Assembly: GCA_051362555.1 (NCBI GenBank)
Contig: CM120641.1
Coordinates: 35,036,401 to 35,100,400, forward strand
Direction of reading: 5' to 3'
DNA from: Lingula anatina
Lineage: Eukaryota; Animalia; Brachiopoda
DNA: 64,000 nucleotides
How positions within the stretch are numbered: position 1 is the first letter of the stretch; each line of letters opens with the position of its first letter. The notes under the pieces are model-generated. The model saw only the letters and a list, made by a program, of their open reading frames with translations, had not been told where the DNA came from and did not search any database. Position numbers and translations under genes: made by a program. Below, one piece after another: positions 3,701-61,731 of the stretch.

Positions 3701-6700
3701 TTATGGAGCTTTTCATTGGAGCCTCATGGTCATCATGTAAATTGCAAAGTTAATGTGCTTTTCAAATCAAACCTATTTCCTAGAGCCTGTAAAAATTAAT
3801 TCTGATTCGGTTGTTAAAAAACACCCTGCCCTAAAATAAAGTAAACAAATAAAGGTAGCATTAATAAGAAGAAAAAACAATTAAATAATTATAAAACTAT
3901 GTCTAGTCTCTTTTCTGCTCAAATAGCATTGAAAAGTCTTGAATTTCTCAATCTTATTGCATCTAAGTAAGCCAAAGGAATGTTGATCGGAAATTCACAT
4001 ATTTCATATCCCAAAGCTTAATTTTATCCCATATAAAAAGATGCATTTTGAAAAAAAAAAGGAAAAGATATAGGATATAATTTTTATTTTCAGGAGACGG
4101 AGGTGGTGAGTGTATCCCTGCAGAGCAAGGACATCATTGGGCTTGGGTTCAATGTTGCTGGCAGCATGCGTGATGGCATTTTCATCAGTCAGGTGCACAA
4201 CAGAGGCCCTGCCAGTGAATCAGGAAAAATTAAAGTTGGTAAGTGTGTGACAGACAGACAGACAGACGGACAGAAAGACAGGCAGATAGACTGTATGGTG
4301 TATGTTACAGACAGCTATTCACCCTTTTACTTCTTATATGGTTTATTTGTGATATTAATTTTTTCACACTATATGCATAGTTCCATTCTTGTTTTCATCT
4401 GTTACCTACACTCTGAAGTCAAATAAGGTCAACTTATTGCATTTATTCACAATGCAGGTATTTTCATATGGAGATGAATTTGTCTAGATTCCAAACAGCT
4501 TAAAAGTGTTGTCAGGAAGTAAGCCGATCCTCAAAATAGACTAAGGCCCCATTCCCATAGACACCACCGATCTACACAGATCGATCCAACTCTCACTGAG
4601 TGCAATTAGCATAACTAAATGACAAGCTTCCTTCTTGTGTTAATTAAAATATACACCAAAGCTGCTAATTATACAAGTATGTTGGAAACCAGAAGAGGTG
4701 TGTCAGTCAGTTTAGCAGATTGTACTCGGTGAGATTGCCCACAGAGTTGGATCAATCTAAGTAGACCAATGATGTCTATGGGGATGGGGTCTAATAGCCC
4801 ATGTTAACATTTAATGTAATACTGTAACAATGTATTTAAACATATAATGCACATAATGTATGGTCCTTTCAAGATAAGCAGTTCCCATTAATGACTTTTA
4901 AGTAGAAAAATTCCCTTATGTAGTTCAAATTATATTAATAATATACAGGCAATGCATGTATTTAAACTAAAACATATGAAAGAAAGTTTGGAAATGATAC
5001 ACATTATTGCAATAAATAGGAAATTACTTTTCAATTTTGAATTGTGCACAGTCCATGTAATTCTACTTATCAAAACCCACATAAGAAATTGAACTCTTTG
5101 TGGCAGGGCAAATTAGCATGGACATTATGAACAAGCACATGCTGGGGTCAGCCATACATAAAGTAACCACATAACCCCTCCTTCTCCACATTGTATATCT
5201 GCTTTCCTTCAAAGGCCATCATGGAAGGAAGCTCTTCAGGTGTGAGTTTCCTCTTAGGGCTTTTCTACCTTCTTTGGCAGGATGGTATGCAAACTTCAAG
5301 TACTTCTGTTCAACTATTTCACACACATATTAAGTGTATCAATGAGGCATTTCCTTATCACTTAAAGATTTCCAAGTGAAAAATTATCAAAAAGGAATTT
5401 TTTCAGTTTGGTAGCAGGTGTTGAATGAGGGTCCCAGATCAAGGGAAGTAAAATTAACAATTTACAAATTACAGTAAATAAAACTAAATTCATATCTCAT
5501 TGAAAATGCAGGAAATACAAGTTGAAAATAACAAATCGCCAAGCATAATGACTTCGTTTCACAAATAACGAAGAATAAAAAGCTGCATTCACAAGTCACA
5601 GGATTGGGATTATTCACTGAACACACTAAGTAATATGAATGCTTCAGGCATCTCGGGGGGAAATGAAAGTTGCCTTCATAGGTAATGAAAATACCCCTTT
5701 TTAAATGTTGAAGAAAGAGAATTCTTGATAATTCTATGAAAAAACCTAAAACAGCAAAATTCATTCTTAAGATATTTTGTGAAAGAATAAGATATTTAAA
5801 TCCCTCCTGGCAACATCAAATAACAATTATCTTTTTTGTCATTCTTTCTGAAGAAAATTGCGACATGATTTTGCAACATAAATTTATGTTAAAAAAGGAA
5901 AAGGATAAATTTCCAAACCATTCATCATTTTGACAGTTTCCCTCACTTGGAAGATTTCTGAAAAATGTCAAAAAGTCGCATGCTGAGTCCTTTATTTCTA
6001 ATAGAGAGCATTACATGTTTGTCACGTATTGTCTCAAAAGTGATAGGATTTTGGGGACAGGTTGGCATAATGAGGGATGAAAGAACTGTTGATGCTCTAC
6101 ACACAAAATTAATGTGCAGTGAGTTTTACATGCTTAAAATCAGAAGTGGTTGAATTGGCATTTTTACAGAATGTAGTATTTTTTTTTTTTTTTATTCTCT
6201 ACAGTATTTCTTTAAATTTTTCTCTCCTTTTCTTAAACCTGTTGTAGAAAGAAAGCTTCATTGTATGGGGTATTTAATTTCTGAAAGGTACCATAGAAGT
6301 ATAAAGTTATAGTTGTCCTGTCAAGTAAAACACCTTACCGTGAAACTATTTTTGTGAAAGAAAGTGTACATTTGATCATAATACTTGACTTGTAACCAAA
6401 TCTTGCGAAAGAAATTATCGCACAAAATAATACCTGTATATATTACATATTTGAATTTTAGTTGCTGTTGGACCAAAGCAAATACCTTTAAGGATCATAG
6501 GGGTTTTATTTGTAACATTATTACAAGATGTAACATGACCCTGAAAAGTGCTTCTTGTCCAGTCATATCTAAGCTTGGCTTTCTGTTGCACTCTTTAGTA
6601 TTATTTGGTGTGAAAATAAGGCGAGCCTTTGATATAGACACAATGAAAATAGACAAGAATCTGTGGAATGTATTACTATTCAGATGACAAAAGTTGAAGA

Positions 6701-14000: not shown

Positions 14001-14923
14001 TGCTACTTACAGAATTTCTTAAATTGTCTTTTCAAATGATGAAAAAATACAGCAACAAATAAGTATTGCTGGGTTTAAAAAACTAAATAGAACTTCATAC
14101 ATAATAACTGCTCTTCAAAAAATTCACACTACTTCTCTAGCCATTTAAGATTGTATACAGAGATCAATCAGTAAGATCAATCAATAATTTTCTTTTCATA
14201 ATAATTATCGTTCATTTATTTTTTTTCTTCTAATGAATAACAAATGAATCTTCTTCATTTTACTCAATCATTTCATAAACATCTCTTAAGCACATCTGAA
14301 AGAGTTGGTATGGCACAAGCACAAGTAGTATGGCAAATAAGACATTCATAGCCTCTACTGTCTGAAATTGATATGCTGGCTTCCTTAGTTGCATGTGATA
14401 CATGGAGGTGACTGCAAGTGTTTGACATTGTGGTGTACTGGATTTGTTGGATTGTGTTAGTTGTGATATTCAGTTGCGATCTACAGAAATTTAGAAATCT
14501 CCCAAGATAGACATTTGTTGTTCTTTTGAAATAAAGGAGTAGGGAAACTGTTCTTTTGAAATAAAAGGAGCAGATAAACTGGAACTGACAAAGAAAGATG
14601 TTTGACTATTTTTCAATAAGAATGTATTTTTCAAGATTAAATGGAGTCAGCTCAGGGTGTGAAACCGAAACCACACACGCGTTGCAGTATCCAGTAAAAT
14701 ACAAGATATAATTTTGATGTTTAAAATAACATTAAGGTGGTATTTTGTGTCACTTTGCATCATTTTGTTCTATTTGATGTCGTTGCAGTATATAGTGACA
14801 CCCCTGCCTGATACACAAACTCAGGACGTGAAAGATATGGACCAGGAAAGGCAGGCTGCCAATTCCTTTTTTGCTTTGTACTATTTATTCATATCTATAC
14901 TCGCCTGTTACTACGGCATCATC

Positions 14924-15400
14924 ATGGGCGAAGAATTCCAGACCTGGAGGAACAAATATGAACTTAGTGATCAAGCGATGACAATTTTAAGTGAAGCGGG
15001 GTTCAACTTGACGCGATCCTGCAAGATGCTAACAGTCACGCTCATCCAGAAAACGTTGGGCAGCCACTTGGGCAGCTGCTGCAAATGCAGGACATGATTA
15101 AGAACAAAGACATGATTAAGAAATCAGCCAGGACAGAACAAACTGCAGACACAGTAGAGGACGCTGCCAGCAAGAGACACGTAGCAAGGGCCGGCAGCAG
15201 CAGAGGACCGAAAGCTCAGCCACCGTCCTCCTCAGAGTCGGGAAGTGATGTCACCAACATGGCGGAGCCCATAGCAATTGAGGGGGAGTTGGATTACACA
15301 AAATTGTGCCAGCTTCTGGGCACCAAGATGGCAGAGGGAGTTGCTAAGGAATCGATGCCTCCTCAAGGTAAGAGCACCTTTGATCCGTTTGATTCCCCGG
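14924..15400 (+). pseudogene. Frameshifted ORF fragment, possibly the gag/ORF1 N-terminus of a DIRS-like retrotransposon
   Basis: Locally GC-richer coding-like segment MGEEFQTWRNKYELSDQAMTILSEAGFN...LIQK, broken by a frameshift and an 18-bp duplication near 15090. Family assignment is from memory of similar invertebrate TE ORFs only. Confidence 0.3.
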
Positions 15401-15574
15401 GTGCTGCAACTCTGTGTGTGTTTTTAAAATGGTGTAGTACAAGTGTAAGTTGTACCAAAAGAAGAACTACACTGACATACTAGAAGAAGCAATGTTCATA
15501 CAGGACAAAATGAGTAAAATATTATAGGATAAATATATTAGGATAAAAATCATTTATCAAAATATGCTTGTAAG

Positions 15575-15605
<31 letters not shown>

Positions 15606-15799
15606 TGGCTATGTCAAAATTATGAGATAGCTATGTTGAAATTACAAGATAGTTATGTAGAAATTATGAGATACTACGTCCTAATTACAACAATTTTTTT
15701 AACACGATACCTGTCGGCTTCTGTAATTCTTCTATTTGATGTGTTATTTTGTTAATTACTTTAGGTACAAGATGAAACCTGCACTGTCCCTTGGTCAGA

Positions 15800-16784
15800 A
15801 GTCTGACTAAAGAAGGTCCAAGTTTGAGGAGGTCATTTTTATGTTGATCTTGGTAGGCATCCAGGCAGTGATAGACAACCTCATCTACAGCATTGGCAAG
15901 ACAGGTAGGAGTGTCTTTGTAATCCTGTCTGCCTCTACGTCTAAGCTTGTCTGTTTGCCTTGGGGAATCAAGGATTTCCTTTGGGAGACAGTCCCGCTGG
16001 GGATGGGGAGGCATTGCCAAGCATGCAGAAAGACAAGGTATGGACTAAGTTCCACAGTTTAAGGATGGCACTTGACCTTACTGCCAAAATAATGGATTTC
16101 CTTGTACCATTTCGGAAGATTGCAGCAGTGGTGAGCTTACAGCCATCCAGACTTATCAGGTTTTTGTGAGATCCTCCTTTGACCAAGTATTTGAGTATAC
16201 GGACGATATGGGCAGAAAAAAAATGTGTGTGGAGAGGAGTAAACAACAGACAGTGAGCAACAGGTCTTACTTTATGTGGCAGGATACATGTGTCACAAAT
16301 TATCTAAAAAATGTGAAGTAAAAAGCCCTAAGTATGCTGCTGTAATTAAAACAGGTTCAGGAAAGGCAAGTCATCCTCAGATAGGGCAGCATATTTAAAG
16401 ATGTCAAAAACAGTGGACTGAGATGGTTAGCATGTGACAGACATTTTGTTTTTGTTTGTGCAGTTGCTTGAAGAGGTAGTGAGGGAAATATTTTCTGAAG
16501 AAAAGACATATTCTTATCACAACCATGGGGATCTCTGTAAAGGGATAATGAAACTGGCCTTCCACAACAAAGTTTTAATGCATTATTGGGAAGAAATGAC
16601 AACCAGAGAATTTGACAAATTAAAAATGGACATTTTTGGAATGTTTGTAAACCTGTATGTCACTATAAGAGATCATTCATTTCGCAGACAGCTTATAGAA
16701 AATTACCAACAATCAGTGTCTGCATCAACTAAAGAAAAAGAGTTAAGAAATTCTCTCAAAAGAAAGAGTGGATATATTATTTAG
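15800..16784 (+). pseudogene. Decayed transposon-associated gene fragment (unassigned; weakly reminiscent of the P/THAP9 transposase C-terminal region)
   Basis: Broken ORFs containing KVWTKFHSLR, a KYAA segment (ALRYxAGY-like, frameshifted) near 16330, and LYVTIRDHSF...KELRNSLKRK. Multiple frameshifts. Confidence 0.35.
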
Positions 16785-17003
16785 GTTTTCCACAAACAGA
16801 CAGTATGTATCAGTGATTAATTAGTGTACATGATTATGGATCCAATTCTAGAAGTCGGCGTGATATCACATGATGGCTGCCGCCTTACCTCCAAATCGTA
16901 AGGTATAATTTACACATAGTGTAAACCTAACTGATAACATAATTGTGGTTTTTCATACTGTTTTCACAAAGCCTAATTGTCTTTTTTTCTACTCACTTTA
17001 CAG

Positions 17004-18365
17004 GTTAGGGGAGACCTGCTCTCATGTTGGGGCTTTGTTGTTTAAAGTGGAAGCAGCAGTGAGATTAGAAGTGACAACTGCAACATGCACAGACCGTCCC
17101 TGTGCATGGAATGATTTTTATGTTGATTCTGTGGAAGTTGACAAGGTTTCAAACATACAGTTTTATTCAAACAAAAGCAAGATTAGGGTGAGGAAACGGC
17201 AGAAAACCATTCCACAGGCAACCCCCCCAGGCCAAGGCAGCATTTCTTCAGTCTTTGGAGACCCCATGCATAGGACTTACTTTATTTAGACAACATAACG
17301 CAAGATATTTGTTGGACTGGGCCCTACACCAGTGCCAAAGAAACTCCTTGGCACTGGACATTTTGGACATTTTAAAAGAGATTTTTTAGGACAGACGCAG
17401 CAAGGAAATTATACAGCAGTCCTTGAGAGACTTGTACACTATTGGCAATGAACATTTGAATGGCCCTGCCTTGAAGGAAGCATGCGAGCAAGCTAAGGTG
17501 AAGGTGGGCTCGCTGACCAACACAGAGGCCAGGTACGTGGAGGAGGTTACAAAGACTCGGTCCTTATCAGCAGCGTGGCACATGGTCCGTATAGGGAGAA
17601 TTCAGTGGCTGGTGATGTGTTGAAGACAGACCAGAGAGTCCAGCTCCATCTCCGATTAACAAGCTCACTTCAGCTTAACAAGCTCACAACAGTGCTCCTA
17701 TTAGATGGGGACGAGAACATGAAAAGGACGCCCTCACCCGATATCAACAATTGTACACTGATCAGAACCACAATGATATCAGCATCAACAGCTCTGGCCT
17801 CAGATTGGACACTAAGCAGCCATGGCTTGGGGTATCACCAGATGCTATTGTAAAATGCACTTCTTGTTGTGGTGAAGGCACTGTAGAAGTGAAGTGCCCT
17901 TTTGCAAATAAGAACATTTCCGTAAGAATTGCCCCCCCTGATTACCTGGATGAAAACTTTTATTTGAAACAGAATCACAAATATTAGGTCCAGCTCCAGA
18001 TGCTAATTTGCAGTGTGAATTTTTGTGACTTCGTGGTATGGTCTCCCAAAGATTGTATTGTTTTTAGAGTCCTGAGAAGTGACCGGTTTTGAAAAGAAAT
18101 GGTGACTGTCCTTACCGAGTTCTGGGAGAGGCATGTGTTGCCGAAATTGGTTAGTAGAAAGGTGGAGCTACGGGAGGATTGCCCTGTTGTTGAGGCCGCC
18201 GAAGCAGTAAAAGCCCCAATTTACTGTGTATGCAAAACAGCATCTGAGGAGGGTGATATGGTAGGGCGTGACAGATGTGACCAGTGGTATCACCCCAAAT
18301 GATTAGGGCTAAAGGGGCTGCCAAAGAGCAAGAGGTGGTTCTGTAAAAATTGCAGGAAGAAGTAG
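17004..18365 (+). pseudogene. SWIM zinc finger - YqaJ/lambda-exonuclease-like - PHD finger gene, pseudogenised; typical accessory gene of ISL2EU-type DNA transposons
   Basis: LGETCSHVGALLF (SWIM end); WLGVSPDAIVKCTSCCGEGTVEVKCP (PD-(D/E)xK YqaJ core); YCVCK...CDQWYHPK*LGLKGLPKSKRWFCKNC (PHD). In-frame stops at ~17985, ~18090 and ~18300, plus several frameshifts. Confidence 0.8.
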
Positions 18366-21340: not shown

Positions 21341-24300
21341 TCATGAATGATAAACCTTGATGACTTCTGTGATTTCCTTCCTGCATATTGGACAGCTGTC
21401 TCTGCGATTGAGCAAAAGGCGGGCACAGTCTTGACACGTGACCATGTGATGACAGGGACACAGCAGACAGTCTCGTGTGTGGTCCATGCAGATAGCACAA
21501 TCACGATCTGTGCCTTCCATAACATAAGAGGCTAGAAAGAAAACATTTTTATGTTCAGGTTTCCCCCATTTCTTTTTTACTGATTTAAGATAAAAATGAT
21601 CATATTGGAAAATACTGTGAAACTCAGGGGCAGATCCAGAGATATTTTCTGACAGACACTTTCAACGCTTTTTCTCAATTTTCGCAAGTAAATAATAATG
21701 ATAACAACGTCTGATGCAAATTTCTATGAATTATGTGCCAAATGTTGAAGAATAATGTATTCTGGAAACAAAATATTTTCTTATCATCATTCAGTTTTCC
21801 ATCTATCCACCTTTAGCTGCCTCTTCTATTTTGACAATTTTCCAATCATTCATTATATTTAATTAATATTTTAATTAATGAATTAATTAGTAAGCTCAAT
21901 TCCTTACTAAGGTTATCTTAGACCACATTCCCATAGACACCATGGGTCTAAGTAAATCGATCCAAATCTTCAATTCAGTGCAATCAGCTTAACTGAATGA
22001 CCTGCCTCCTTTTGTTTTCATTATGTATAATCACCAGCTTTTGTGTATTCTGCTCAAAACCAGGAGGAGGCATGCCATTCAGTTAAGTTCATTGCACTGA
22101 GTGTGAGTTGGATTGATCAAAGTAGACCGATGGTGTCTATGGGAACAGGGTCTCACTCTCTTGTCATCACCCAGCCCTACCTGTGTCATCATCCTGAGGA
22201 GGGGCAAAGTTCCCCCTGTGGCCCAGAGCTGGGATGGCACTCTCAAAGAAGTAGCCAAGACCAGACTGGTTCTTGATCTGTTGAATACGAGCTAGAAAGG
22301 CAATACAGGTGCACTTTGAGTGAAGAGGTATTAGTGGATAAAAGTAATTTTCCGAAAGGGATAGTTAAAATATGTGAATTATGTTGCAACCTATTATATT
22401 TCCATGCCGTTTTCAGCTTTTGTTAAAAATTAAGAGAAAACAAAAAACATCCATTCCTAACTGCCCCAAAATATATTTAACTAAAAAAAATCGTGCTGAG
22501 CAAGTCTTTCCTTATAAATAAAGTCTTTCTTTCATAAATTTATATATTCTGACCTAATTTTCTTGCTTCTCTTTGTTCTTCTGATAAAATTAGAGGTTCT
22601 CCACCAGATCTGAAGAACAATGTCTTCCCCATCTTCTCTAAAAGAATTCTCACTGTAAACATAAAAACATAAAAGATTCATCACACAGGAATGAGAATGC
22701 CATTTAGTCAAAAAGTCTGAAAACATGGCATGGGGCACAGGGGGCCCTCTGCTTTGATCTCAAAAATGATATTTTTGACTCCCCAAAAAAGTCAGAAATC
22801 TGCTGACAGTCAGAGAAATCTCATCAGTGATCACAAATCACACCAAAGCAAATTGTCCCCACATGATTCTCAACTTACGTACTAGTATCTACATTCTTGT
22901 TGAAAAGAGCATTACCCTGCATATCTTTTCCTCCAAATACATTTTTTAACAATGATTTCTTACTTAATACCTTTTTCTATTACTTCTGCAGAGGTATGTT
23001 TGCCAGGTGTTATTTCCACTTCTGGTATGTAGTACACAGGAAATAAAAACCTCAGTCCTAACGTTCTCTGTTGGGAAAAAAAAGGTCCATTTGATTATCT
23101 CTGCCAGTATTGCAATTTTTAAAATACACAATTTTCAATCCCATGCCTCACTTTTATCTGTATGATTTTGCTTTTTATTTTTATAAAACACATTTGACCT
23201 TTATTTCAAATAAATTATTTAATTTTTCTAAAACCCATTTGACCTGTATTTCAAATAAAGAAATGACCAACAAATGACAAGCTTGTATGTCAAAATAATT
23301 TCCAGTAATATGTGATGGTTACCTCCTTGTATGCTGTTCTCTCAACTATCTGACCCATGTCTAAATTCAGTGTATTGGATGCAATGATTGCATTAGATGT
23401 ACAACAGTGGGATACCCCTGCAAAGAAGCCATTTCAAATAAAAACAAGTTCAACAGAGAAAAGATTTTTTTTTTACATGTCATTCATCATCTCAGAATTC
23501 TGTTCTTCAACATCAGATGGTTTTATTTTCTGAGTTTTATCATTCAATCATAAGCAACCAAACATTACTGAAGTTACAATAGCAAAATTTCTATGTGACA
23601 ATTATGCTTAAAGGACATGAAGTTCTTACTTTCAAATAAATCCTGTTTAACCTTCAAATCATCCACTACTGCCTCGAAGATAAAGTCTGCATCATTGACC
23701 GTCTCTTCCAGCAGACTCATGCACAAAACTTGACCCTGTAGACAAATTATACATTTTCACCAACCCAGACACATACATCATGATATGACAATTTTGATGA
23801 TATTTCAGTACAAAAGTAATTTGTAATAATAGGCTCAGACCTAATAATTGTTAGACAAAGGCTACTAGTAAGCTATTTTAATTACACAATCTATAAGGTG
23901 GCCACAAAAGATGATCCTTTTCTGTATCTTAAAATTACCAAATCAAATTTTATGAACTCCCCATCTGACAGTGTCTATCTCAGATTAAACTATCATGCAG
24001 TTGTAGTATAAAACAGATGTGTTTAAATCTAAAGCAAAAATGATTAATATTTTACAAATTTCAAATATTTAATATAATTCAAGCAAGGAGTTATAACAGA
24101 AGGAGATTACACGCGTGGGGGCGGAGCCCGTATTACGGTCTCTCATTGGTCGGAATGAATAGAACCCAGAGAACAATGGATGCCTATCTCTGTTACGCTT
24201 AATTGTTGCTCTCGTTTAAATCTCGTTTGTTAGTATCTGTGCCTTCGTCTGTTGATTTTAGAGGACAGAAACAGAAACGGAGTCCCAAGTTTCTAAAAAA

Positions 24301-27300
24301 TGAGAGAAATACAGAATTTATATGATATTACGTTGGACAAGGTTTTCAAAAAACAGGTAAGTGCTTTTAAATGCATAACTACTCGAAATATGAAGATAAA
24401 TTGCAACTTTTATGCCGTGGGGTCTCACTGTATAAGTGTCCAGCTCCACGTCGATCTCGCGAGGTGGTGTGTGGAGCATAAATATTGCACGAAAAATATT
24501 TCCCACTCATAACAAGTGCTTATAAATATAGTATCAGATGAAGAAAGTTTGGTCTTTATGCGGTTGCAATTGTTAAGTAATTTGTGGCAATAGCAAAGAA
24601 TAAAACTTAGGTGCACTTTCAGTAGCCGAATAACAAGCAGATGCTTAAGCCGCCATCTTGTTAATATTTCGAAAAAAAATTACTCCAAAAGACATTTTCC
24701 TCCTACTTTTTGAAACTTGTGTCACATGACAGTCATAAAATTTAACTAATTGTTATGTGTGCAACACACTTGCTTGAGCAGTATTGTTTTTTTTTGCGAT
24801 TTTATATGTGGTCTAGCTTGGATACGACAATTGACAATTTTCATGAGTTCCGATCAAAAAGTGTTACGCTTTTTACGGTCAAAAGCCTTACCGCTTTTTG
24901 TACTTTTCAAATGCAAGATTATAAAAAAATTTGGTGTGTTTAGATTCTTGAACATCTTGGTCGTGGCGTGGTATATATTGCATGGATACTGCTCCAATAT
25001 TTCTTGAAAAAAATAACCTGATTTGTTCAGAATACCAATTTTTTACTCTAGTGTTATGGGTAAATGTACCATTTTGGCCTTTACCTTTTTCATGTTTAAA
25101 TCTAAAAAGACTTATCATGACAGTTGGTCATCATTTTTCTTCTCACCATGGTGGGTGGCTTTGGAGTGGTAACTTTGTTGTTAAAGTAAAGTGCTCAGTT
25201 TTTTTGACTGGAAAATTTTGCCTCCACCCAGCATTTTCCATCATGGCGGTCTAACAGGAAGTTTGACTTCATGGCATAGTTATTTTTAACTTATTTAGTC
25301 TTCTTTTTACATATATATGTTTTAATTCATATTAAACCTTTGAAAAAAGAACACATGAATCCTGGTGCTTTTAATTTAAAGTCTTAAGTTCACCTAGGCT
25401 CCACCAATTACTTTACCTGTTATCTCACTACACATCTCCCTTTGAGTCAAGGTGTGTAAGACACACCTTATTGTGTAAGACACCTCTATAATTAAGGGGT
25501 ACTTGCTTCTCTACTTTAATTATACTTCACTACTTTGGCATGTTAGGTGGCAAGCTTGGATGTTTCAGTTCATTTTAAGAAAGAAGCTTTGCCTTGGTGG
25601 TTACAAAAGAATAGAACTCTAAATATTTCATCTTGCAGTGTTGAAACAGAAATTCTCTCAAAATTGATAATGAATTTTACATGCATATCTTAACACTACT
25701 CAAGTTTTTTTTCGTTTATTATAGATATGGGAGAAGGCTGCATTGAATATATGAATTATGGTCAGGCTGGAAAAAATTAAAAAATGTCAATGAAAAAAGG
25801 AGGTCAGCGTGTCTGGGGTAAATTACTTTTGTCATAATGCCTAAGATGCATTAAACATTCACTAACAACAGTACCCTTTTTAATTTTTTTTCAAAATACA
25901 ACAACCTTGGGCATTTTCCTTTTAGCAACCAAGTCTCTCTGAAATCCCCTTATTGTCCTGTCAGAAGAGTAGGAACCAGGGCGGATTTAAATAATTTCTT
26001 GTAATAAGTACAATTTCTTTCAATTTCTTGGGGTTATTAGCTTGTGATCATGAATCTTGATATTCTACATAAATTTAGTTGTAAATTGTTCATTTATGTG
26101 GTGAACATTATTTCAGTCAAGTCATAACAAGACACATTAAACTTCACTGCGTAATACCATAATGTCTACATGGATACTAGTAGTTCATAATGCTATTATT
26201 ATGTTTTTTTTTCTAACCTACAGGTTTCTCTCTTTTCTGAGTGGCATGGCATTGGCAGGCAGAAGAAAAGGCCCTGAAGAAATTCTCACTTGAGTTGTCC
26301 TTTTTGGAGAAGAAACTGGATAAGACTGGCCAACAGAGATTGCATTAAATTAATAGTGCTCCTTCATGACATTTTAAAATATTTTCAGTCACCTAACTGA
26401 CTCTATACATTTCAAAAGTTGACATAAATTTTATGTTACTGTCACATGGAAAAAAATTCAAAACCTATATATAATTTGTTGAGTGCCATGGTATAACAGT
26501 CTACTTGATTGCCAGTAAAATTTGGACTGTTTCAGTGAAATTTCTTTAAAGCAGTCACTTACTGGCCCAGTTAATTTTTTCAGCTGTAACATGTACTCCG
26601 GTTCATTTTATAAATGTTCTTATTATGTGTTGTCTTGATTTATAATAACCTTTTGAAAATCCCATGTTTTTTATCCTATTTGTAAGAATAAGCCACTTTA
26701 TCTTCTAGGGTTTTTTTTTTCATTCAGCTCATTAGATTCTCAGACCTTGCTGGCCTGTGAGTGGAATAGTATCTGGCACAGACTGGTATCAGCAAGTCAG
26801 ATAAAAAAGAATATAATTATTTCTATTTGCACGGTTGAAAAAATTCCAACACAGCCTGCATAAAACTTGGAAAAGTATAGCAACTTAATCATTCTTATGA
26901 CTTCATTAATTACTGCTTATGTGTAAAATTTTGTTTTTGTTCTTCTATTGATTTAATAAAATGGTTTTACTCACAGATGCTACTATCATGATGCTTGAGT
27001 ATAGAGTTGACTTAAAAGATATTTTAAGTTAATATAGTAAATAATAGTTTGAAATTCAAAATTCTCATCTTTATTTGTTTCACTTTAAAGAGCTCAGTTA
27101 ATACTAAAAATTCTGATATATTTTGTACATAAATATATTTATGAATGAATAGAAATTCTTAATGTTTAACACTTTGCACTGGTTTACCGACAAATAAGAA
27201 GTGTTAGTATGTGTCAAAATAATCCTGAAAATAAAAAGGGAGATTTCCAAGATAAAGAAATTTATAACGAGTATTTAGCAAACTGACATGTCGTGGCATT

Positions 27301-28626
27301 GCCTCAACCTTTGATTAAAATTTCACTTTAATGCATTATGATATTAAAATTATACCGAGGGAGAGAAAAAAATACTTAAAGAAATTTAAAACTAGTCACA
27401 AAGCTTAGGCACTGTCTCAATGTATATGTTTATGGGACCAAAGGGCAGGGGGGTCCAAACGTTTATGTATTAATATTATGCCCTTTGGCAGTGAGGACAG
27501 ACGTTCACTTGAATGTCATTTTCACAAACCACAGTTGGGACGTTTTCTGTTGACTTATCCTTGGTGATTTTTCACTGTGTTGTGCAAAAGAAAAGCCATC
27601 TATCACCGACTCAAAAAAAAACTCATGGCGACCATCCTCAGTCACCACCTTATAATCGCTTTCTATGATATCGTTCCCTCCCAGCACATCGTCCAAATAA
27701 CTACCTGTGAAAAAAATCGTCAGCATACAGCGCCGCTTTGACACTACTGATCTCGAATTCTAACGCGAAATAACGCATATAAAATCAATCTCCAAGCGGA
27801 GGAGAGCGACCCAGACGAAACCTTGAGACAGGAGGCCCCCCGTAGCTAGCTCCGCCCACCGTAACAGACATCGGACAATAGAGAGGCTTGCGTGTAATCT
27901 CCTTCTGTTATAACTCCTTGATTCAAGTCACCAGAATGCAAATGTTATAATTCTAATATTTCTCAAACCATGAGGTACAAATATCCCCCTTCCCCAATAT
28001 AAAAGATACACATAGAGAATTACAATAAAATTCCTGTGGCTCATTAGTCCTTCTCGTCGCAAATGTCTCTTGTCTTCTTCTATCCTTTCATAAACGCTAT
28101 TTAACTGGTTAATGTTACTGTCATACATCTTCACACGGTGCCCATGGTAAGCCATCTCACCTACGTAAATAAGGAAATGGTGTCAGAAAAACAAGTGACA
28201 GGGCTGAAAGCTGACAAAGTTAACAACAAAAATTAATTTGACAGTTTCTGACTAAGACATCACTTTTTAAGATACAAAAACACCTGGACAGCCTGTAAAA
28301 CCATGCATGATGAAGCAGTTTTAACTTAGAACGATTTTCGTGCTTTTTCCATCACTGAAAAACTTAATACTTGCTAAAATGCTTCCAGGTTTGCCCAAGT
28401 CTAAATATCACACAATTACAAAAGTATGGTAATATTCGCTGTCTAACTGTACCAGGTCACTAACAGGTAATTTCCATACTCATCTATTCAAGCTTTTTAA
28501 CACCGTAACATCGGGCAGTCGAGGTTTCGTGCTCGTTTATTAGCAAATTATTGTATCTTTCTTTAAAAACCTACCAGCAATTTTGACTCCCATGAGCCCG
28601 CAGCCGAGTACTGCGATTTTGACCAT
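21341..28626 (-). CDS. 3-hydroxyacyl-CoA dehydrogenase-like NAD-binding domain fused to a C-terminal C3HC4 RING finger (putative E3 ubiquitin ligase), 295 aa
   Basis: Eight GT-AG exons: 28575-28626, 28024-28160, 23630-23735, 23323-23417, 22971-23067, 22554-22652, 22181-22291, 21341-21531. They total 888 nt with consistent phases. The protein starts MVKIAVLGCGLMGVKIAGEMAYHGHRVKMYD (GxGxxG), contains DADFIFEAVVDDLKVKQDLF and IIASNT, and ends CAICMDHTRDCLLCPCHHMVTCQDCARLLLNRRDSCPICRKEITEVIKVYHS*. Confidence 0.9.
21625..21660 (+). mobile_element. Truncated end of the CAGGGGCGGAT MITE family
   Basis: CAGGGGCAGATCCAGAGATATTTTCTGACAG is nearly identical to one end of the copies at 59753-59919 and 63344-63512. 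Confidence 0.55.
21921..22152. mobile_element. Palindromic MITE, PIF/Harbinger-like (same family as 4545-4791)
   Basis: GACCACATTCCCATAGACACC.../...GGTGTCTATGGGAACAGGGTC, flanked by TTA/TCA. The interior aligns with the 4545 copy. Confidence 0.75.
24084..27920. mobile_element. Non-autonomous P-element-superfamily DNA transposon (3837 bp) in intron 2 of the Rossmann-RING gene
   Basis: Perfect 31-bp TIR CAAGGAGTTATAACAGAAGGAGATTACACGC (24084-24114 and 27890-27920) with an exact 7-bp TSD ATTCAAG (24077-24083, 27921-27927). No transposase ORF is visible. Confidence 0.85.
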
Positions 28627-33400: not shown

Positions 33401-36400
33401 TTGCTTTTACCACCAATATGTACTTTTTGATACAGCGTAACTCGAAAACCGTATGGAATACAAAAAAACCGAGACCACCTCCAGTGTTGGGCTTTACATG
33501 CTCTACAAAATGCAAAAAAGAATGGGTCTCTAGCATTAACGGTTCCCGAATTAGAGACAGTTTTCAGTTTCGGTATCTTATGGCCGCTACTCCCGTGAAA
33601 ATGCACCGATTGACCCCAAATTCATGGAGATGAAAGATGACCTGAAGGGTAACACTTTCCAATAATATTATTGGTTAAGTCTGTGTAGTGTCTGAATAAC
33701 AGGGCAAAAAAAATTTTTTTCGTAAAAAATTTCATTTTTTTGAAAATTTTGACCCATTTGACCTTGAAGTAAAGGTCAAAGGTCAAATCCAAGGGTATAT
33801 TTGAAATCTACACATATGACTTTTGAAAAGCCGTCTATAGAAATTTTACCCATAACTCCTTCCGTAGGGTAGATAATTAGCATTTAATTTTGCCATTTTT
33901 AGACAAGGGTGCATTGTAATGAATGCCACACCCAGACCCCAATACCGACAAAGCCCAAATTTTACGTGGAACGAGTTGAGATTATAGGTGACCTAAATCC
34001 ATGAGATGGGTACGGGGGCCCTTACCGTCTAGGAGGAGAAGCGGTAACGGTAGCCGTCTGGCGGAGCCGGCGGAACGATCCGGACGGGACCGAAACCATG
34101 TGTACCGCCAGCGCTAACGCTGGTGGTACAATTAATAATGTCAAGCTTATTCCAGATTCTTACTGGCAACAAATTCCTGGTATCTTGGGTGTTTACAGAG
34201 GAATTCCTGGAGAGGTTTATTTTTGTCAGGATCTTGATGTCCACCCGCCTGGCGCCACTCCTGACCATGAATCTTAAGATAATCTATCTCAGCACCACGC
34301 CTCTCACCTTCCTCTACCTAATATTTGGTAAAAATGATACATCACCCATTATCTATTCAATTAAATGATTTTACTGCTTGGCAAAGATATTTCTTTTAAA
34401 TTCCGTTTCAGCTGCAGATACGACTAAGGGTATTAAAATGCTAAATTATATGACATAAAAAAATGAAAACATTTCTTTAAAATGTAATTATCAAAATATT
34501 TTCCAAGTCATATTTTTTTAAATATCTATAAATCACTGGTTTCAATATCTTAATTAAATCTGATAATTTTCATATGTAGAATGGTGGTAACAAAGCAAAA
34601 TAAAACACAACTTACCACAGTTCTATTACACATTTTTAATCCCTTTATTCTAGCAACAATGTTTTCCCTAACTTGTTCTATAGTGCCAGTCTCCATTATT
34701 GGATTTCTCTTGATAAGAATGTCCTCCAATACTGAGAGTTTATTCAACTCATTGAAGGAAGACCACTGAAACAAAAAAATTTAAATACTCACTGAAAACA
34801 AGATAAGTTCCTTGGAAGCTTGATAACCACCTGAAGATCATTCAGAAACAAAATCTTGTAAGAAAAGAAAAAACAATTTCCACTATTAATGATAATTAGA
34901 GAAAGGGTCTTAATGCATAAACATAGAAGATTTAATACGATAAAAATACCTCAAATAGACTGAAACAAGATAAGATATGAAAAGATATTTTGTAATCTGT
35001 CGTGATCTGTAATTAACTTATAGTTAATTGTGTGTGAGGAATAAATAGTAAAATCTTAACCTCATGTATCCTGTTATCATTCAAAGACAAACATTTCAGT
35101 GCTGGAAAATAGTGAGTGGTTTCTCCAGGCTGGACATCATTGAAAAAAATATTCACCAGTCCAGTTTTATTGAGATGCAGTGTTTCTAATCTACAATGTA
35201 AAAAATCATGGAAATATAACTACAGTACAAAAATGAAAGAAATTGATTAAATTGTTACCTGACAAAATCATACTTAAACAATCATTATGTGACACTGACA
35301 TTTTTAGGATTTTTTATTTTGCGAAAAATATTCATAAGGAACTTTCTATTATACCTAACCTTTTCAATGTTCCCAGCTGCAACACACTGCCCCAGCTATC
35401 TAACTGGTTTCCCTCTAAATCTATAAGTGTTAAGTTATGTAACTGTGGTGGTGGAAGCTCTGAGATGGTACAGATGTTGTTATAGCAAATCAAAATTTCT
35501 TGGATATCTGGCCACATTTTGGAAAAGTCCAGAACCTTTCATGTGAAATGAAAATTAAACAAAAAATATCTATATAATTAAATAAAATTTTACAGTGACA
35601 TAAGTAACATATTGTAGGGACTCAAAATCTAAACAATAACATAATACTCATATTTTTCTCATTTTCCAATATCTTTTTTTAATTATTTGTATAAATATGC
35701 TACAATCTGTATGTAGAATGTATTAATTATGAAAGAATACTCACCTGTCTCCAACATAACTGCATCCTGTTCAATATAATGGTTTTCAAGCACAAAAATG
35801 CTGAACACAAACCAGTTGGATTGTTTGGAAATCTTAGTTGATTTTCACTGTAAAAAGGAATCATCCATTAATTTTTAGTAAGTATTGCCTTGACGAAGAA
35901 GAGATCCAAGACACTTTATTTTATCACCCTGCATAAAATTCTCATTTACCTTATCACTTTCAAATGCTTTGAAAAATCAAAATGTTAATGAATAAAATAA
36001 CTCATTAAACTTGTTAACAAATAAAATTCTAACAACAAAGGTTTTAAAACCAACCTTAAATTCAATATCTCAAGTTTCTTTAACTGAACTGCTATTTTTG
36101 CAACTTCCTCCCATGATGGGATCAAATTTTGGGATATGTCTAATTCTTCAACATTTGGGCAAGTATTTTCTAATGCTGATTCAGGTCCTGCACCAAAGAT
36201 TTTCATATCCTTTAGAAGAAGGGACTTTAGTTGGTCAAACTGACTGAAATGATAAATCTGCATTTCAAAAAGATGAAATTATTAATATTAGATTTACATT
36301 CAAATAATTCTATTCTAAACGAATGCCAAATTTCCTCTTTCAACACTTTACATTTATATTTTTAAAGCAACATCACCACCCAGTGTTAACAGCAGCTGCT

Positions 36401-43500: not shown

Positions 43501-46500
43501 TTCTGTGAAGGCACAACAACATTCTTCCTAAAAAATTTTAAAAATCCACAGTAAGCTACAATCTTTCTTTCATCTCCTGTGTATTGCCACCATTGGTATT
43601 TCAGATAATGCAGATGTCAGTAAAGCTCTGCAGAGATTAACAGAACCAACAGTAAGCTATAACCTTCCCTCTATCTCCAATGTTATGACCAGTGCATCAT
43701 CCAAGATGAAGATGAAGGCAGAAGATGCACCAATCCCAGAACCCCTGTTGAATAAATTATTGCAGGTTAGGACTTAGCTGAATGAAAAATTAGCATTGTG
43801 TTGTAGAATTATCAACTGTTTACAGTGTAGTGAGTTCACTCAAGCTGATGCTGAGATTGATGTTTATCACTAAAAGAGTAACTAATAAATGTCAGTTTGC
43901 GTTTTAGGTCAATTTTGTGCTATTTTTCTGTGATTCTCTCATATTAAGTTCCCTACCAGTTTAATGGGACTGAAAGTCATTAAATTCTTAATTTCAGTTT
44001 CTATTTCCTGATTCTGTCAATGAGGATAAAACGGAGCAAACTTCCACCATTGGATCCTCCAAATCAGAAACTTCAGATGTCACAAAGGTATGAGTGCATC
44101 ATGACTGGAAAAATTAGAATAGATGAACATCTTTCTTTGAAAGCATTATGCCTATTTTTAATAATCTTTTGGGTGGCAATTGTCCTAACCAAGGCCATAG
44201 AACGCAGTTTTATTTAACTGGGATGCATCTTACCATCTAGCTACATCAAACTACTTTCTAGGAATCTAGTAGTCCATTCATAGGCCGTCACACAAACCAG
44301 CCCATCATTTACCGAAATTTTTGTAAGCTGCCTAGCCATCTTTGATAATATATCTTTTGAGGCCACTGGCAGTCCCAATGATTGCTGGACAGCTCTCTGG
44401 GGAAGGCTTTGGTCTTAACTCTAATTGTTAAAGATAGGAGACTTTATTTTTATTACGTTTCAGGATCTCGGACGACAGTTGAAGTCAGCTCCTGTGGACA
44501 GCCTGACTCACAAACTGGCTATTTGTTGCTGTATACTGAACCACAGTGGTGGCGGCCTGAGAGCTCTGGCCCATCTGTGGCAGGAGTTTGTACTGGAGAT
44601 GAGATATAGATGGGAAAATGACTACTACATTATAGGGTGAGTGTATGGTTCTAAAGTTCTAAATAGGCGAGAAAATGTTTTTAAAGATAGTAAAAAAGGA
44701 AAGGTCAAATTTTTTTGCAAAAACTTTTGATTTTCTTTTATGAGATAAATATCTTCGTAGCAATTTGTTTGTGTGCCATGAAATTGACTAAAGGTAGGCA
44801 CACAGGAAAACGACTATATTACAAAAAATAAATAAAAACAAATTGCCTGGTTTGCATCTTTATTTTACCTACGATGTTATTAAAAGCTCTGTAATTTCTC
44901 AAACCATTGATTCTTTTCAGTTTAGAAAAAGGTTCACCTAATCTAGGGACAAGTTTACTTCATCAGAAGTTACAGGTAATAATGCATAAATTAATTAATG
45001 CACTGCAAATTTCTTTCTAATGAAACGACCAAGTTCAAGACACAAGAATTGTGTTATTGCCTGATGTAAAGATAAAAAAAATCTCAGATCCCATCCTTGT
45101 CCCCATAACTGTAGTTGTAACATGCTTAATTGTATATTGCATAAGGTTTTAGTTTATCGGCTGAGCCTTTGCCCACTGATAAGATTCAACATACTTTAGG
45201 CTCAGGTGTATTTTTTTATGAAGTTTGAAAAAAATTTTTTTGAGCACTTGCATTAAATGCAGCAAATTTAAGTACAGGTGAAACTCAACTTCGTCTTACT
45301 TTCCAGATGTTGAACTGTTGTATTGATAGGAAGAAAACGAGGTCTGCACTTGGTCTGGAGGTAAAACATACCTCTATATCAGACAACATTGAACAGTTAG
45401 GTAAGCAAGTTAAGTCTTCGGTACAGGACACGAAGGGTAAAAACTTTGAGAAAGACACTGGAAAAGATGCAGCAAAGGAGAAAGAGGGGGAAGATGATGA
45501 CGACGATGATGATGATGAATTTTATGAGTGCCAAGAATCTATGAGTCAGGTATCTTTAGCTAAAAAGACATCTGTGGCTGATTCAAGTGACAGTACGTCT
45601 TTGCTAGGAGAAGACTGTGATAATGAAGAGGCTATCAGCCTTGCCTCAGATCTCAGTGGGTCCACAGATGTCAGGTATGAGGACTCGGTGACATTGCAGC
45701 CAGAGGGGCGTCTCAGGCCGTGCGGGGAGTTGAAATTGTTGAGAAGGGACGAGATTCTCTACATTCCCATCACACAGGAACCTGCTCCCATGACTGAGGA
45801 CATGCTGGCAGAGCATGCTGAAGTGCTAGCCAAGTAAGTGGATGCAAATAAGTGGCCTTCACAAACAAAGATCTATCAAGGATGCACACATTTACAACAT
45901 TGTACAGTGGTTGGATGTTTGTTTCTTCATTGCTATTTTGAAATTTTGCTTTTATATAATGTGTTTGTTGCACATGTATGATGTTAGGAGTGGTAGAAAG
46001 AAATTTTTAATCAGCATTGCATTCTGTGTTTCAGTCTGGGGTCATCAGTAGAAGGCACACATCTGAGGGCAAGGATGCAAAGTGCTTGTCTGTTGTCAGA
46101 TATGGAGGCTTTCAAGGTAACTTAGTTAACTGGGATGTGGAAAATTGCACGAGGTCTAGAGTCCAGTGTGTTTTTTTAATGAACATAAAATGGATAATGA
46201 CAAGTTTTTTTTTAATTGTTTTTGTACAAAATGTTTCAACATGGGTAGAATTTATTTAATTTGAAAAAAATTGACATCTATGAAATGTTGCAAAATTAAG
46301 TTTATTTATGAAATATTGCAAAAGTAATAAATATAGATGAAATATATGAAATATTCCAAAAGGAAATGAGAGTTGTTTTTTTTTTTTTTTTTAATCTACT
46401 GCTGTACTCAAAGTGTTACCAGTATTTACTGTTGTTTTTGAGGCTGCCAACCCTGGTTGTATCCTAGAGGATTTTGTTCGCTGGTACTCCCCTAGGGACT

Positions 46501-60100: not shown

Positions 60101-61731
60101 TAACTTAACTTACCACAAATGTGTCGGGCACTTGCAGCTTTGGTGTTGGAAGTCCAATAACAATATCCACAACCAACATGACCACAATAGCAGTAAACAC
60201 AGCAAAGTCGCTAACCACAGAACGGACCTGTAAGAGTTAAGCATGTAAATGTTAAGAGTCACAAACACGATGAATAAAGACTGTCATAACTAACAATACA
60301 TATAAAGACTTATATCTAAATAAACGTTTTGTGTAGCATGAAAAAGTCAAACTAAACTAAGCATCTCTGATGCTTAGCAAAATAATGAGACGTCTCAAAA
60401 TAAAAGAAGTGTATGCAATGTGGTAAAATCGCAGTAGGTTTCATTTTTGAAAATATTTCTAAGTGCGAAGTCTCACAGATATCCAATACAATTTCAAAAG
60501 TTAAAATCCAGTGAAATGCCACTTAGTCACTTGATAACATAATAAGCAACAACAAACATTTTTCTCTTGACAAAAACACAATGAACACACTTAATCACCT
60601 TGAGAGGGCAGAACCTGCTCATCTTAAACCCCTTGAGTGCATATGCCAGTACAAATGTACCAAAAAACAGAAGGATGGAGAAGAAGAAGACATCTGCCAC
60701 ATATTCCACCGTATCACAACCTGGACCGACCAGTGTCCCACCATACAGCTTACAGTCCGCCTTGTTCAGAGACGCCCATGGAAATGATGCATTGTGGGTT
60801 GCATTGACGATCACTTCCACTTCGGCGTGTCTATCATAAAACAGGAACACAATGTCCTCTTTCGAGTGCTGAATACTCGCGGGGTCGGTGATGTTGGTCG
60901 AGTTCAGTGTCGCATTTGGGTGGACACAGTGACACTCGTATGTCAGCGGTATCTCTGGGTCCAGATTCACGGGACTTGAGTCCTGGATTTTGAACAACTT
61001 CGCAAATGCCTCGTAGATGAAAATGAGGGAGATGAGAGAGGCGAAGCTCTCCTCTGTGAACCGTGTGATATAGCGGACTAAGGCACTGAGGTCGAAAGCC
61101 ACCATAACCATTAAGAACAAGCATGTCCACATGCCGATCCAGAAGCGAAGACTGAGGTAATGCAGGTGGTTGTCTCTGAAATATAACAAATAAATAAATA
61201 AATAAATAAATAAATAAAATGTTTTAAAAACTATATTACAACAGCTTGTGGTGACTTGGTGTTGTTTTTATTAGTCTGCTCAATGGGCATGGCTTTTATA
61301 TCTAAAAAAAAATACATTGGGCAAAAAAGGTCAAGTTTTAAAATCCTGTCACATGCAAACAAATAAGTTAATTTCTCAGACATATACTGTAGAATAAATT
61401 GTGTACTTTCAAATGACAGATAGTAATGAGTCTATCATACAGAAAATTCAAAACATATTCGTGAAAACAAATCATAATATTTTGATAACATTATTAAAAT
61501 GATGGGCTTAAATTAACCCAAGTGCAGCATTCCAAATTACTACCAAACATTGGAAATTGAATTCGTATAATAAGGTTGCATTTTACTTACTCGCAGAAAT
61601 GAAAAACTATGGTTTCAAACACCAGCACTGGTCCAGTACTGCCTATAATGGTCAGCGGCTGACCAGAGAATAAATGATATGTGATTCCACAGATGGCTCC
61701 AGCCAGGATACTTTCTATGGCAGCCTGTAGT

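Follow-up and report, generated by a model that had tools for sequence, protein, structure and literature searches.

In enzymes of the 3-hydroxyacyl-CoA dehydrogenase (HAD) family, the active site lies between an NAD domain and a dimerization domain, the latter completing the cleft and supplying Asn208, and the proton acceptor is His158, anchored by Glu170 (PMC10988713); Ser137 and His158 mark the catalytic center (PMC6333283). In RING-type ubiquitin ligases (E3s), an arginine following the last cysteine primes the ubiquitin-charged conjugating enzyme (E2~Ub), and dimeric RINGs contact ubiquitin through an aromatic residue in the tail (PMC8897509). A precedent for a dinucleotide-gated RING E3 is MARCHF6, which NADPH has been reported to switch (PMC9583509). 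Here we describe a gene of the brachiopod Lingula anatina that joins a HAD-type NAD-binding domain to a C-terminal RING. It lies in a window of 64,000 nucleotides, the whole stretch of DNA that was analyzed (GenBank assembly GCA_051362555.1, contig CM120641.1, positions 35,036,401 to 35,100,400 of the forward strand), and coordinates below are those of the window. From sequence comparisons we propose, with confidence that is evenly divided, that the gene encodes a RING E3 ligase gated by NAD(H), with a pseudo-dehydrogenase as its ligand-binding part.

Gene model and the dehydrogenase-derived domain

The gene consists of eight minus-strand exons running from 28626 to 21341, in which every intron is bounded by GT and AG and 888 nucleotides encode 295 amino acids and a stop codon, as the original prediction, made from the DNA letters alone, had assembled it. 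Raw RNA-read runs labeled as coming from the same species were mapped to the window, and all seven exon joints were found in four runs; the joint between exons 4 and 5 had no reads in one of these, and the joint between exons 1 and 2, at 28158/28573 (cut +2), was seen in all four. The junction linking exon 7 to the RING exon (21531/22181), which the prediction had singled out for confirmation by RNA sequencing, carried reads in eight of eight runs (20, 3, 7, 8, 12, 25, 2, and 3; 80 in total), and the RING exon belongs to the gene. No exon-skipping joint was among those listed from the first four-run mapping, with five weaker joints standing outside that list. An artifact of the gene model was ruled out by the junction reads together with orthologs that carry the same fusion. 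Among the best-supported differences between reads and window (the best 40 of 223 in four runs and the best 40 of 42 in the other four), 29 of the 32 listed coding differences were synonymous, including six of six in the RING exon, compared with about 21% of possible coding changes that would be synonymous; from this the gene is under purifying selection.

The encoded protein is identical at 293 of 295 positions (two residues differ) to an L. anatina database record, P0001, which is annotated as a beta-oxidation enzyme, and all whole-protein analyses were done on this near-identical record as a stand-in for the protein of the window. Pfam matched P0001 to 3HCDH_N at residues 3 to 173 (E = 4.6e-41) and to zf-C3HC4_3 at residues 241 to 289 (E = 3.5e-13). 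Translations of single exons matched 3HCDH_N in colinear order for exons 2 to 5 and zf-C3HC4_3 for exon 8 (E = 1.8e-14). The N-terminal 3HCDH_N fold that had been predicted is borne out by the Pfam match and by structural matches to the HAD family: the predicted model aligned with the NAD domain of the family member 9fbd_A over 183 residues (Z = 27.3; root mean square deviation, 2.0 Å), Foldseek and VIA grouped the domain with HAD-family enzymes, and in sequence the domain matched Arabidopsis MFP2 (E = 8e-22). The replacement of the helical dimerization domain, likewise predicted, agrees with Pfam, in which none of seven proteins, P0001 included, matched the 3HCDH C-terminal domain PF00725, and with the predicted model, in which only a single helix and a linker of low confidence separate the Rossmann domain from the RING. 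The AlphaFold2 model (105 sequences; mean predicted local distance difference test score, 88.9) places the Rossmann domain at residues 1 to 176, the helix at 187 to 204, a low-confidence segment at 209 to 237, and the RING at 241 to 293. The linker, described at first as short, is in fact about 70 residues long and comprises a conserved strand/loop, the helix at 187 to 204, and the low-confidence segment at about 209 to 237.

Alignment to pig and human HAD places Arg136 at the position of the catalytic His158, Leu115 at Ser137, Phe139 at Asn161, and Glu148 at Glu170; among the cofactor contacts, Asp31 corresponds to Asp45, Asp88 to Glu110, and Lys93 to Lys115, and P0001 also has Gly8, Gly10, Gly13, and Asn113. 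From a total of 402 proteins, comparison sets de-duplicated at 60% were drawn for fusion proteins (n = 56) and enzymes (n = 94). The His158 position is Arg in 55 of 56 fusion proteins, the Ser137 position is Ser in none of the 56 versus 92 of 94 enzyme rows, and the Asn161 position is mostly Phe, Tyr, or His in the fusion family. His occupies position 158 in 91 of 94 enzyme rows, a count that is partly a matter of construction, as 33 RING-less rows with Arg were removed before the enzyme set was defined; the Ser count is unaffected. When near-copies are included, Arg is found in 210 of the 212 RING-bearing rows covering position 136, and the 172 RING-less rows divide into 136 with His, 33 with Arg, 2 with Tyr, and 1 with Asn. 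Thirty-two of those 33 Arg rows have the motif of the family and seem for the most part to be fragments, and the remaining one, P0228, groups with the enzymes; this enzyme-lineage 3HCDH protein appears to have acquired Arg at the catalytic His position independently. All 105 rows of an animal-dominated alignment have Arg136; only Leu, Met, or Ile occurs at position 115, and only Phe, Tyr, or His at position 139.

The dinucleotide contacts are kept across sequences whose mean column identity is about 21%. In the set of 56, the GxGxxG loop is present in all 52 rows with letters there, Asp31 in 52 of 55, and Glu84, an acid at position 88, and Lys93 in 56 of 56 each; Glu148 is kept in 50 of 56, Met or Leu at position 12 in 50 of 52, and Asn113 in 39 of 56. 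Compared with an active HAD, the protein shares the fold and the NAD-contact residues and differs in three features, namely, His158, Ser137, and the C-terminal domain. The Rossmann domain is therefore likely to be catalytically dead in a fixed, family-wide manner, a point that the original prediction had not made. Because the catalytic residues are replaced, the cofactor residues are kept, and the new pocket residues are fixed, we infer a domain repurposed for ligand binding rather than one in decay.

The same residues bear on two explanations in which the chemistry or the substrate of the ancestral enzyme persists. An oxidoreductase with altered chemistry, in which Arg serves as general base or anchors a substrate carboxylate and the RING is a second activity or a scaffold, would account for the intact NAD site and Glu170 equivalent and for an Arg that shows complete fixation and no drift; a few enzymes use Arg as a base, and P0228 has Arg at the same position. 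Ser137 and Asn161 are lost as well, however, P0001 falls far below every NCBIfam dehydrogenase cutoff (these demand the whole enzyme length), and there is no C-terminal domain to close the active site and supply Asn208 (PMC10988713), and we regard this reading as decidedly improbable. The original prediction had placed ligase activity or substrate choice under the control of NAD(H) or acyl-CoA. Its NAD(H) half gains support from dinucleotide contacts that are kept while catalytic residues are replaced, whereas its acyl-CoA half fares poorly: descent from 3-hydroxyacyl-CoA dehydrogenases speaks for an acyl-CoA-sensing ligase, but substitutions have removed the residues holding the 3-hydroxy/keto group (those at His158, Ser137, and Asn161), the fold begins at residue 2 with no mitochondrial presequence, and the dimerization domain, at whose interface the catalytic site lies and which completes the cleft, is missing (PMC10988713). 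Acyl-CoA sensing is accordingly highly improbable.

The C-terminal RING and the spread of the fusion

The RING has the predicted C3HC4 spacing, from Cys244 to Cys282, and ends 13 residues before the C terminus; it is complete, with eight Zn ligands that are invariant in 105 of 105 animal-dominated rows and with the exon 8 match to zf-C3HC4_3. Its assignment to the IAP/MDM2 type holds, the nearest solved structures being MDM4, MUL1, MEX3C, cIAP2/1, and XIAP (E = 1e-8 to 5e-8). The E2-contact residues Ile246 and Pro280 are present (Ile or Val in 52 of 56 and Pro in 50 of 56 of the fusion set), and a linchpin Arg, Arg283, directly after the last Cys, is found in 52 of 56 fusion proteins; MDM4 has Lys there. 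The tail is 13 residues long in 39 of 56, and Tyr293 aligns with the tail aromatics of MDM4 and MUL1, with Tyr or Phe in 102 of 105 mostly animal rows. These features make it very probable that the protein has E3 ubiquitin ligase activity.

A search with the RING exon returned 56 proteins, 53 with both PF02737 and PF13920 and 3 that are short RING-only pieces, and a search with the whole protein matched 137, of which 120 were listed. Orthologs with the fusion, on whose existence the prediction had depended, are found in at least 13 animal phyla in which 3HCDH_N plus RING is named. They come from brachiopods, nemerteans, annelids, molluscs, priapulids, arthropods (chelicerates and a myriapod), flatworms, rotifers, hemichordates, echinoderms, lancelets, cnidarians, and sponges. 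Outside animals, members were found in three choanoflagellates, two prasinophytes, the haptophyte Emiliania, and the euglenid Peranema. For distant members, 30 representatives from the HMMER search were looked up, giving 16 clusters with some name and 11 with an organism; a profile search seeded with distant members returned mainly bacterial enzymes and added only lancelet names. No vertebrate, insect, nematode, fungus, or land plant, and no human or model-organism member, is among the named matches listed, which is not proof of absence. Four records are variants of the family (P0204, P0236, P0077, and P0185): two have an N-terminal piece of a kinase domain, one, from a millipede, begins with a PX domain and may be a merged gene model, and one is a tandem duplicated form.

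In a quick IQ-TREE analysis of the Rossmann domain, with chosen rows and with the trait columns left in the alignment, 27 fusion rows and 36 enzyme rows were split by a single branch (SH-like approximate likelihood ratio test, 98), as would be expected if the fusion arose once and early. In the ESM Atlas, 152 proteins, every one of them eukaryotic, form a cluster that was named automatically. The architecture has thus already been cataloged automatically but, as far as we found, not studied.

Proposed ligand gating and competing explanations

In the proposed mechanism, the Rossmann domain would bind NAD rather than NADP by virtue of the acidic Asp31, an acidic residue at the end of beta-2 favoring NAD, and would do so without turnover. 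The pocket next to the nicotinamide, with its new lining of Arg136, Leu115, and Phe/Tyr139, would read the redox state or, alternatively, recruit a substrate only when cofactor is bound. On electrostatic reasoning only, Arg136 might favor neutral NADH over cationic NAD+, and the retained Glu148 may cancel the charge of Arg136. The RING would bind E2~Ub and prime it with Arg283, and if it acts as a dimer, the tail aromatic of the partner would also prime it. The protein would probably be cytosolic, since no presequence precedes beta-1 (the predicted fold begins at residue 2, and exon 1 has no N-terminal targeting extension) and the C terminus does not match the consensus of a peroxisomal targeting signal 1.

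Physical contact between the two domains is hinted at by the Lingula model, whose predicted template modeling score (pTM) of 0.82 exceeds the roughly 0.65 to 0.73 that we estimate for a floating RING and which may therefore have its RING docked. Mutual-information covariation over 139 sequences (effective number, 72) gave a signal dominated by invariant columns. Several observations weigh against gating. The pTM values of the choanoflagellate model (0.71) and the Atlas model (0.67) are within the floating-RING range; members range from 294 to 528 residues in total length, with linkers of highly variable length; many protist and distant members lack the tail aromatic or have it at a shifted position; and 8 of the 103 rows in the animal alignment have Ser in place of Asp31. 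The enzyme-lineage P0228 also carries Arg, so the His-to-Arg change alone is no proof of lost chemistry. Moreover, retained NAD residues point to a ligand site rather than to sensing, and the cofactor might have a structural role or never leave the site.

This last point leads to a competing explanation that we consider unlikely, though it deserves weight: that the dead Rossmann domain is a substrate receptor, its dinucleotide perhaps a constitutive structural cofactor, with no redox sensing. The Arg/Leu/aromatic pocket would then hold a degron peptide or a binding partner, for instance a metabolic enzyme. The same pattern of lost catalytic residues and kept cofactor site speaks for this reading, Arg136, Leu138, Pro140, and Val141 are invariant in 105 of 105 animal-dominated rows as expected of a binding pocket, a long variable linker suits a substrate-recruiting module, and one of two AlphaFold models, that of the choanoflagellate, is without sign of RING docking. 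On the other side, the equivalents of Glu110, Lys115, and Asn135, on the nicotinamide-ribose side, are kept as well, such that selection seems to act on the dinucleotide site as a whole, and HAD enzymes exchange their cofactor freely, which counts against a structural role.

That the ADP half of the site (GxGxxG and Asp31) is the best conserved, next to a rebuilt catalytic half, could also be read as the mark of a reader-writer E3 that works in the manner of RNF146 and DELTEX. Its Rossmann fold would recognize ADP-ribose, free or on a modified protein whose side chain sits in the remodeled nicotinamide pocket, and its RING would ubiquitinate what is bound. ADP-ribose readers are known among RING E3s (PMC7442474). 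Pfam found no WWE or DTC domain in the protein, however, nothing in this analysis linked the gene to PARPs, and Met/Leu12, whose HAD equivalent stacks on the nicotinamide (PMC10988713), is kept in 50 of 52 fusion proteins; we therefore consider such a reader quite unlikely.

A stronger form of gating by NAD(H) can be put forward only tentatively, as a possible but doubtful reading: a very old eukaryotic ligase that would directly read the cytosolic NADH/NAD+ ratio, its dehydrogenase domain made NADH preferring by the His-to-Arg change and wired to an IAP-type RING, and retained in lineages as far apart as algae, choanoflagellates, and lancelets. Its apparent lack in vertebrates, insects, nematodes, fungi, and land plants would explain why the family is unstudied.

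Surroundings, naming, and relation to known systems

The exons and neighboring genes are listed below.

Features of the fusion gene and its neighbors in the window
Feature	Position	Strand	Content
Exon 1	28575..28626	-	ATG, beta-1, GxGxxG loop (G8-G13 = 28605-28588)
Exon 2	28024..28160	-	beta-2 with Asp31 (28122-28120), HAD Asp45 equivalent
Exon 3	23630..23735	-	Glu84, Asp88 (HAD Glu110), Lys93 (HAD Lys115)
Exon 4	23323..23417	-	Asn113 (HAD Asn135); Leu115 (23370-23368) replacing catalytic Ser137
Exon 5	22971..23067	-	Arg136 (23052-23050) replacing catalytic His158; Phe139 replacing Asn161; Glu148 (HAD Glu170) kept
Exon 6	22554..22652	-	End of Rossmann domain; family-specific conserved strand/loop (R177, P182, L185); start of helix 187-204
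Exon 7	22181..22291	-	End of helix; predicted flexible linker, P216-x-L218 conserved in animals
Exon 8	21341..21531	-	C3HC4 RING, C244 (21499) to C282 (21383); linchpin Arg283; tail aromatic Tyr293; stop
PDZ gene exon	4052-4423	+	Neighbor
Leucine-rich-repeat (LRR) gene exon	35988-36278	-	Neighbor
Rab3GAP catalytic-subunit gene exon	45244-45834	+	Neighbor
Bicarbonate-transporter gene exon	60530-61267	-	Neighbor

The neighboring genes, among them the LRR gene, which we take to be TBCE-like, suggest no functional link with the RING gene. Intron 2 contains, on the plus strand at 24200-26860, a spliced transcript antisense to the gene, with a GT..AG joint at 24354/25723 carried by 146 reads in one run, further joints to about 26222, and deeper coverage than the host gene in two runs. 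Three trial splice forms held no open reading frame longer than 43 amino acids, and the transcript is likely noncoding or repeat derived. Inverted repeats of 37 nucleotides (24078-24114 and 27890-27926, 95% complementary) bound 3.8 kb of this intron, including the antisense transcript, and two runs contain reads that connect 24100 with 27901, their shorter side being 21 letters; the unit is possibly a nonautonomous DNA transposon, or else a small repeat present as two inverted copies. In intron 7, a dispersed repeat at 21624-21655 is marked by reads that match it in part, in the hundreds, on both strands and in all runs. The plus-strand region at 14600-18000, with a YqaJ-like nuclease piece at 17679-17984 among other pieces of open reading frames, is probably a transposon.

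As the original prediction had supposed, searches of the open-access literature aimed at the family found no paper on it. Neither the supplements of a planarian RING RNA interference screen (PMC8807557) nor the body text of a survey of plant RINGs (PMC6118397) contains a dehydrogenase term. The names carried by members in databases (3-hydroxybutyryl-CoA dehydrogenase, AIM1-like, lambda-crystallin, and L-carnitine dehydrogenase) look like mis-transfers. Even if gating fails, they would be wrong for many invertebrate proteins and may mislead mollusc, tick, coral, and echinoderm omics. If gating by NAD(H) is true, the short list of modules through which RING ligases are known to read ligands would gain a Rossmann pseudo-dehydrogenase, and a single chain of only 33 kDa, likely soluble, would link redox cofactors to protein degradation in a form that is easily tested and might serve as a biosensor or a scaffold for conditional degraders. 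The family would also offer a clean case of the conversion of an enzyme to a pseudoenzyme, fixed across several eukaryotic supergroups.

Enzyme-type dinucleotide folds serve as NAD(P)(H) sensors in CtBP, Rex, and NmrA/HSCARG, which belong to other Rossmann families, have transcriptional or scaffold outputs, and contain no RING. With the HAD family (HADH, Hbd/PaaH, MFP2/AIM1, CRYL1, and FHMPC dehydrogenase), the Lingula protein shares the NAD domain, the NAD contacts, and Glu170, and it differs in the changes of His158 to Arg, of Ser137 to Leu, Met, or Ile, and of Asn161 mostly to Phe, Tyr, or His, with a RING in place of the C-terminal dimerization domain. It resembles the C-terminal RING E3s with zf-C3HC4_3 (IAP, MDM2-MDM4, MUL1, MEX3, MGRN1, and MYLIP) in RING sequence, terminal position, linchpin Arg, and tail aromatic; those ligases carry BIR, KH, or FERM domains or a membrane anchor, whereas its own N-terminal module is a dehydrogenase-derived Rossmann fold. 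MARCHF6, in contrast to the soluble Rossmann protein of Lingula, is a RING-CH protein of the endoplasmic reticulum membrane in which NADPH acts via the C-terminal MarA region (PMC9583509); no homology between the two was seen, no search having been aimed at it. RNF146 and DELTEX are similar in that a RING adjoins a domain for an ADP-ribose ligand (PMC7442474), but the domains concerned are WWE and DTC, with no Rossmann fold.

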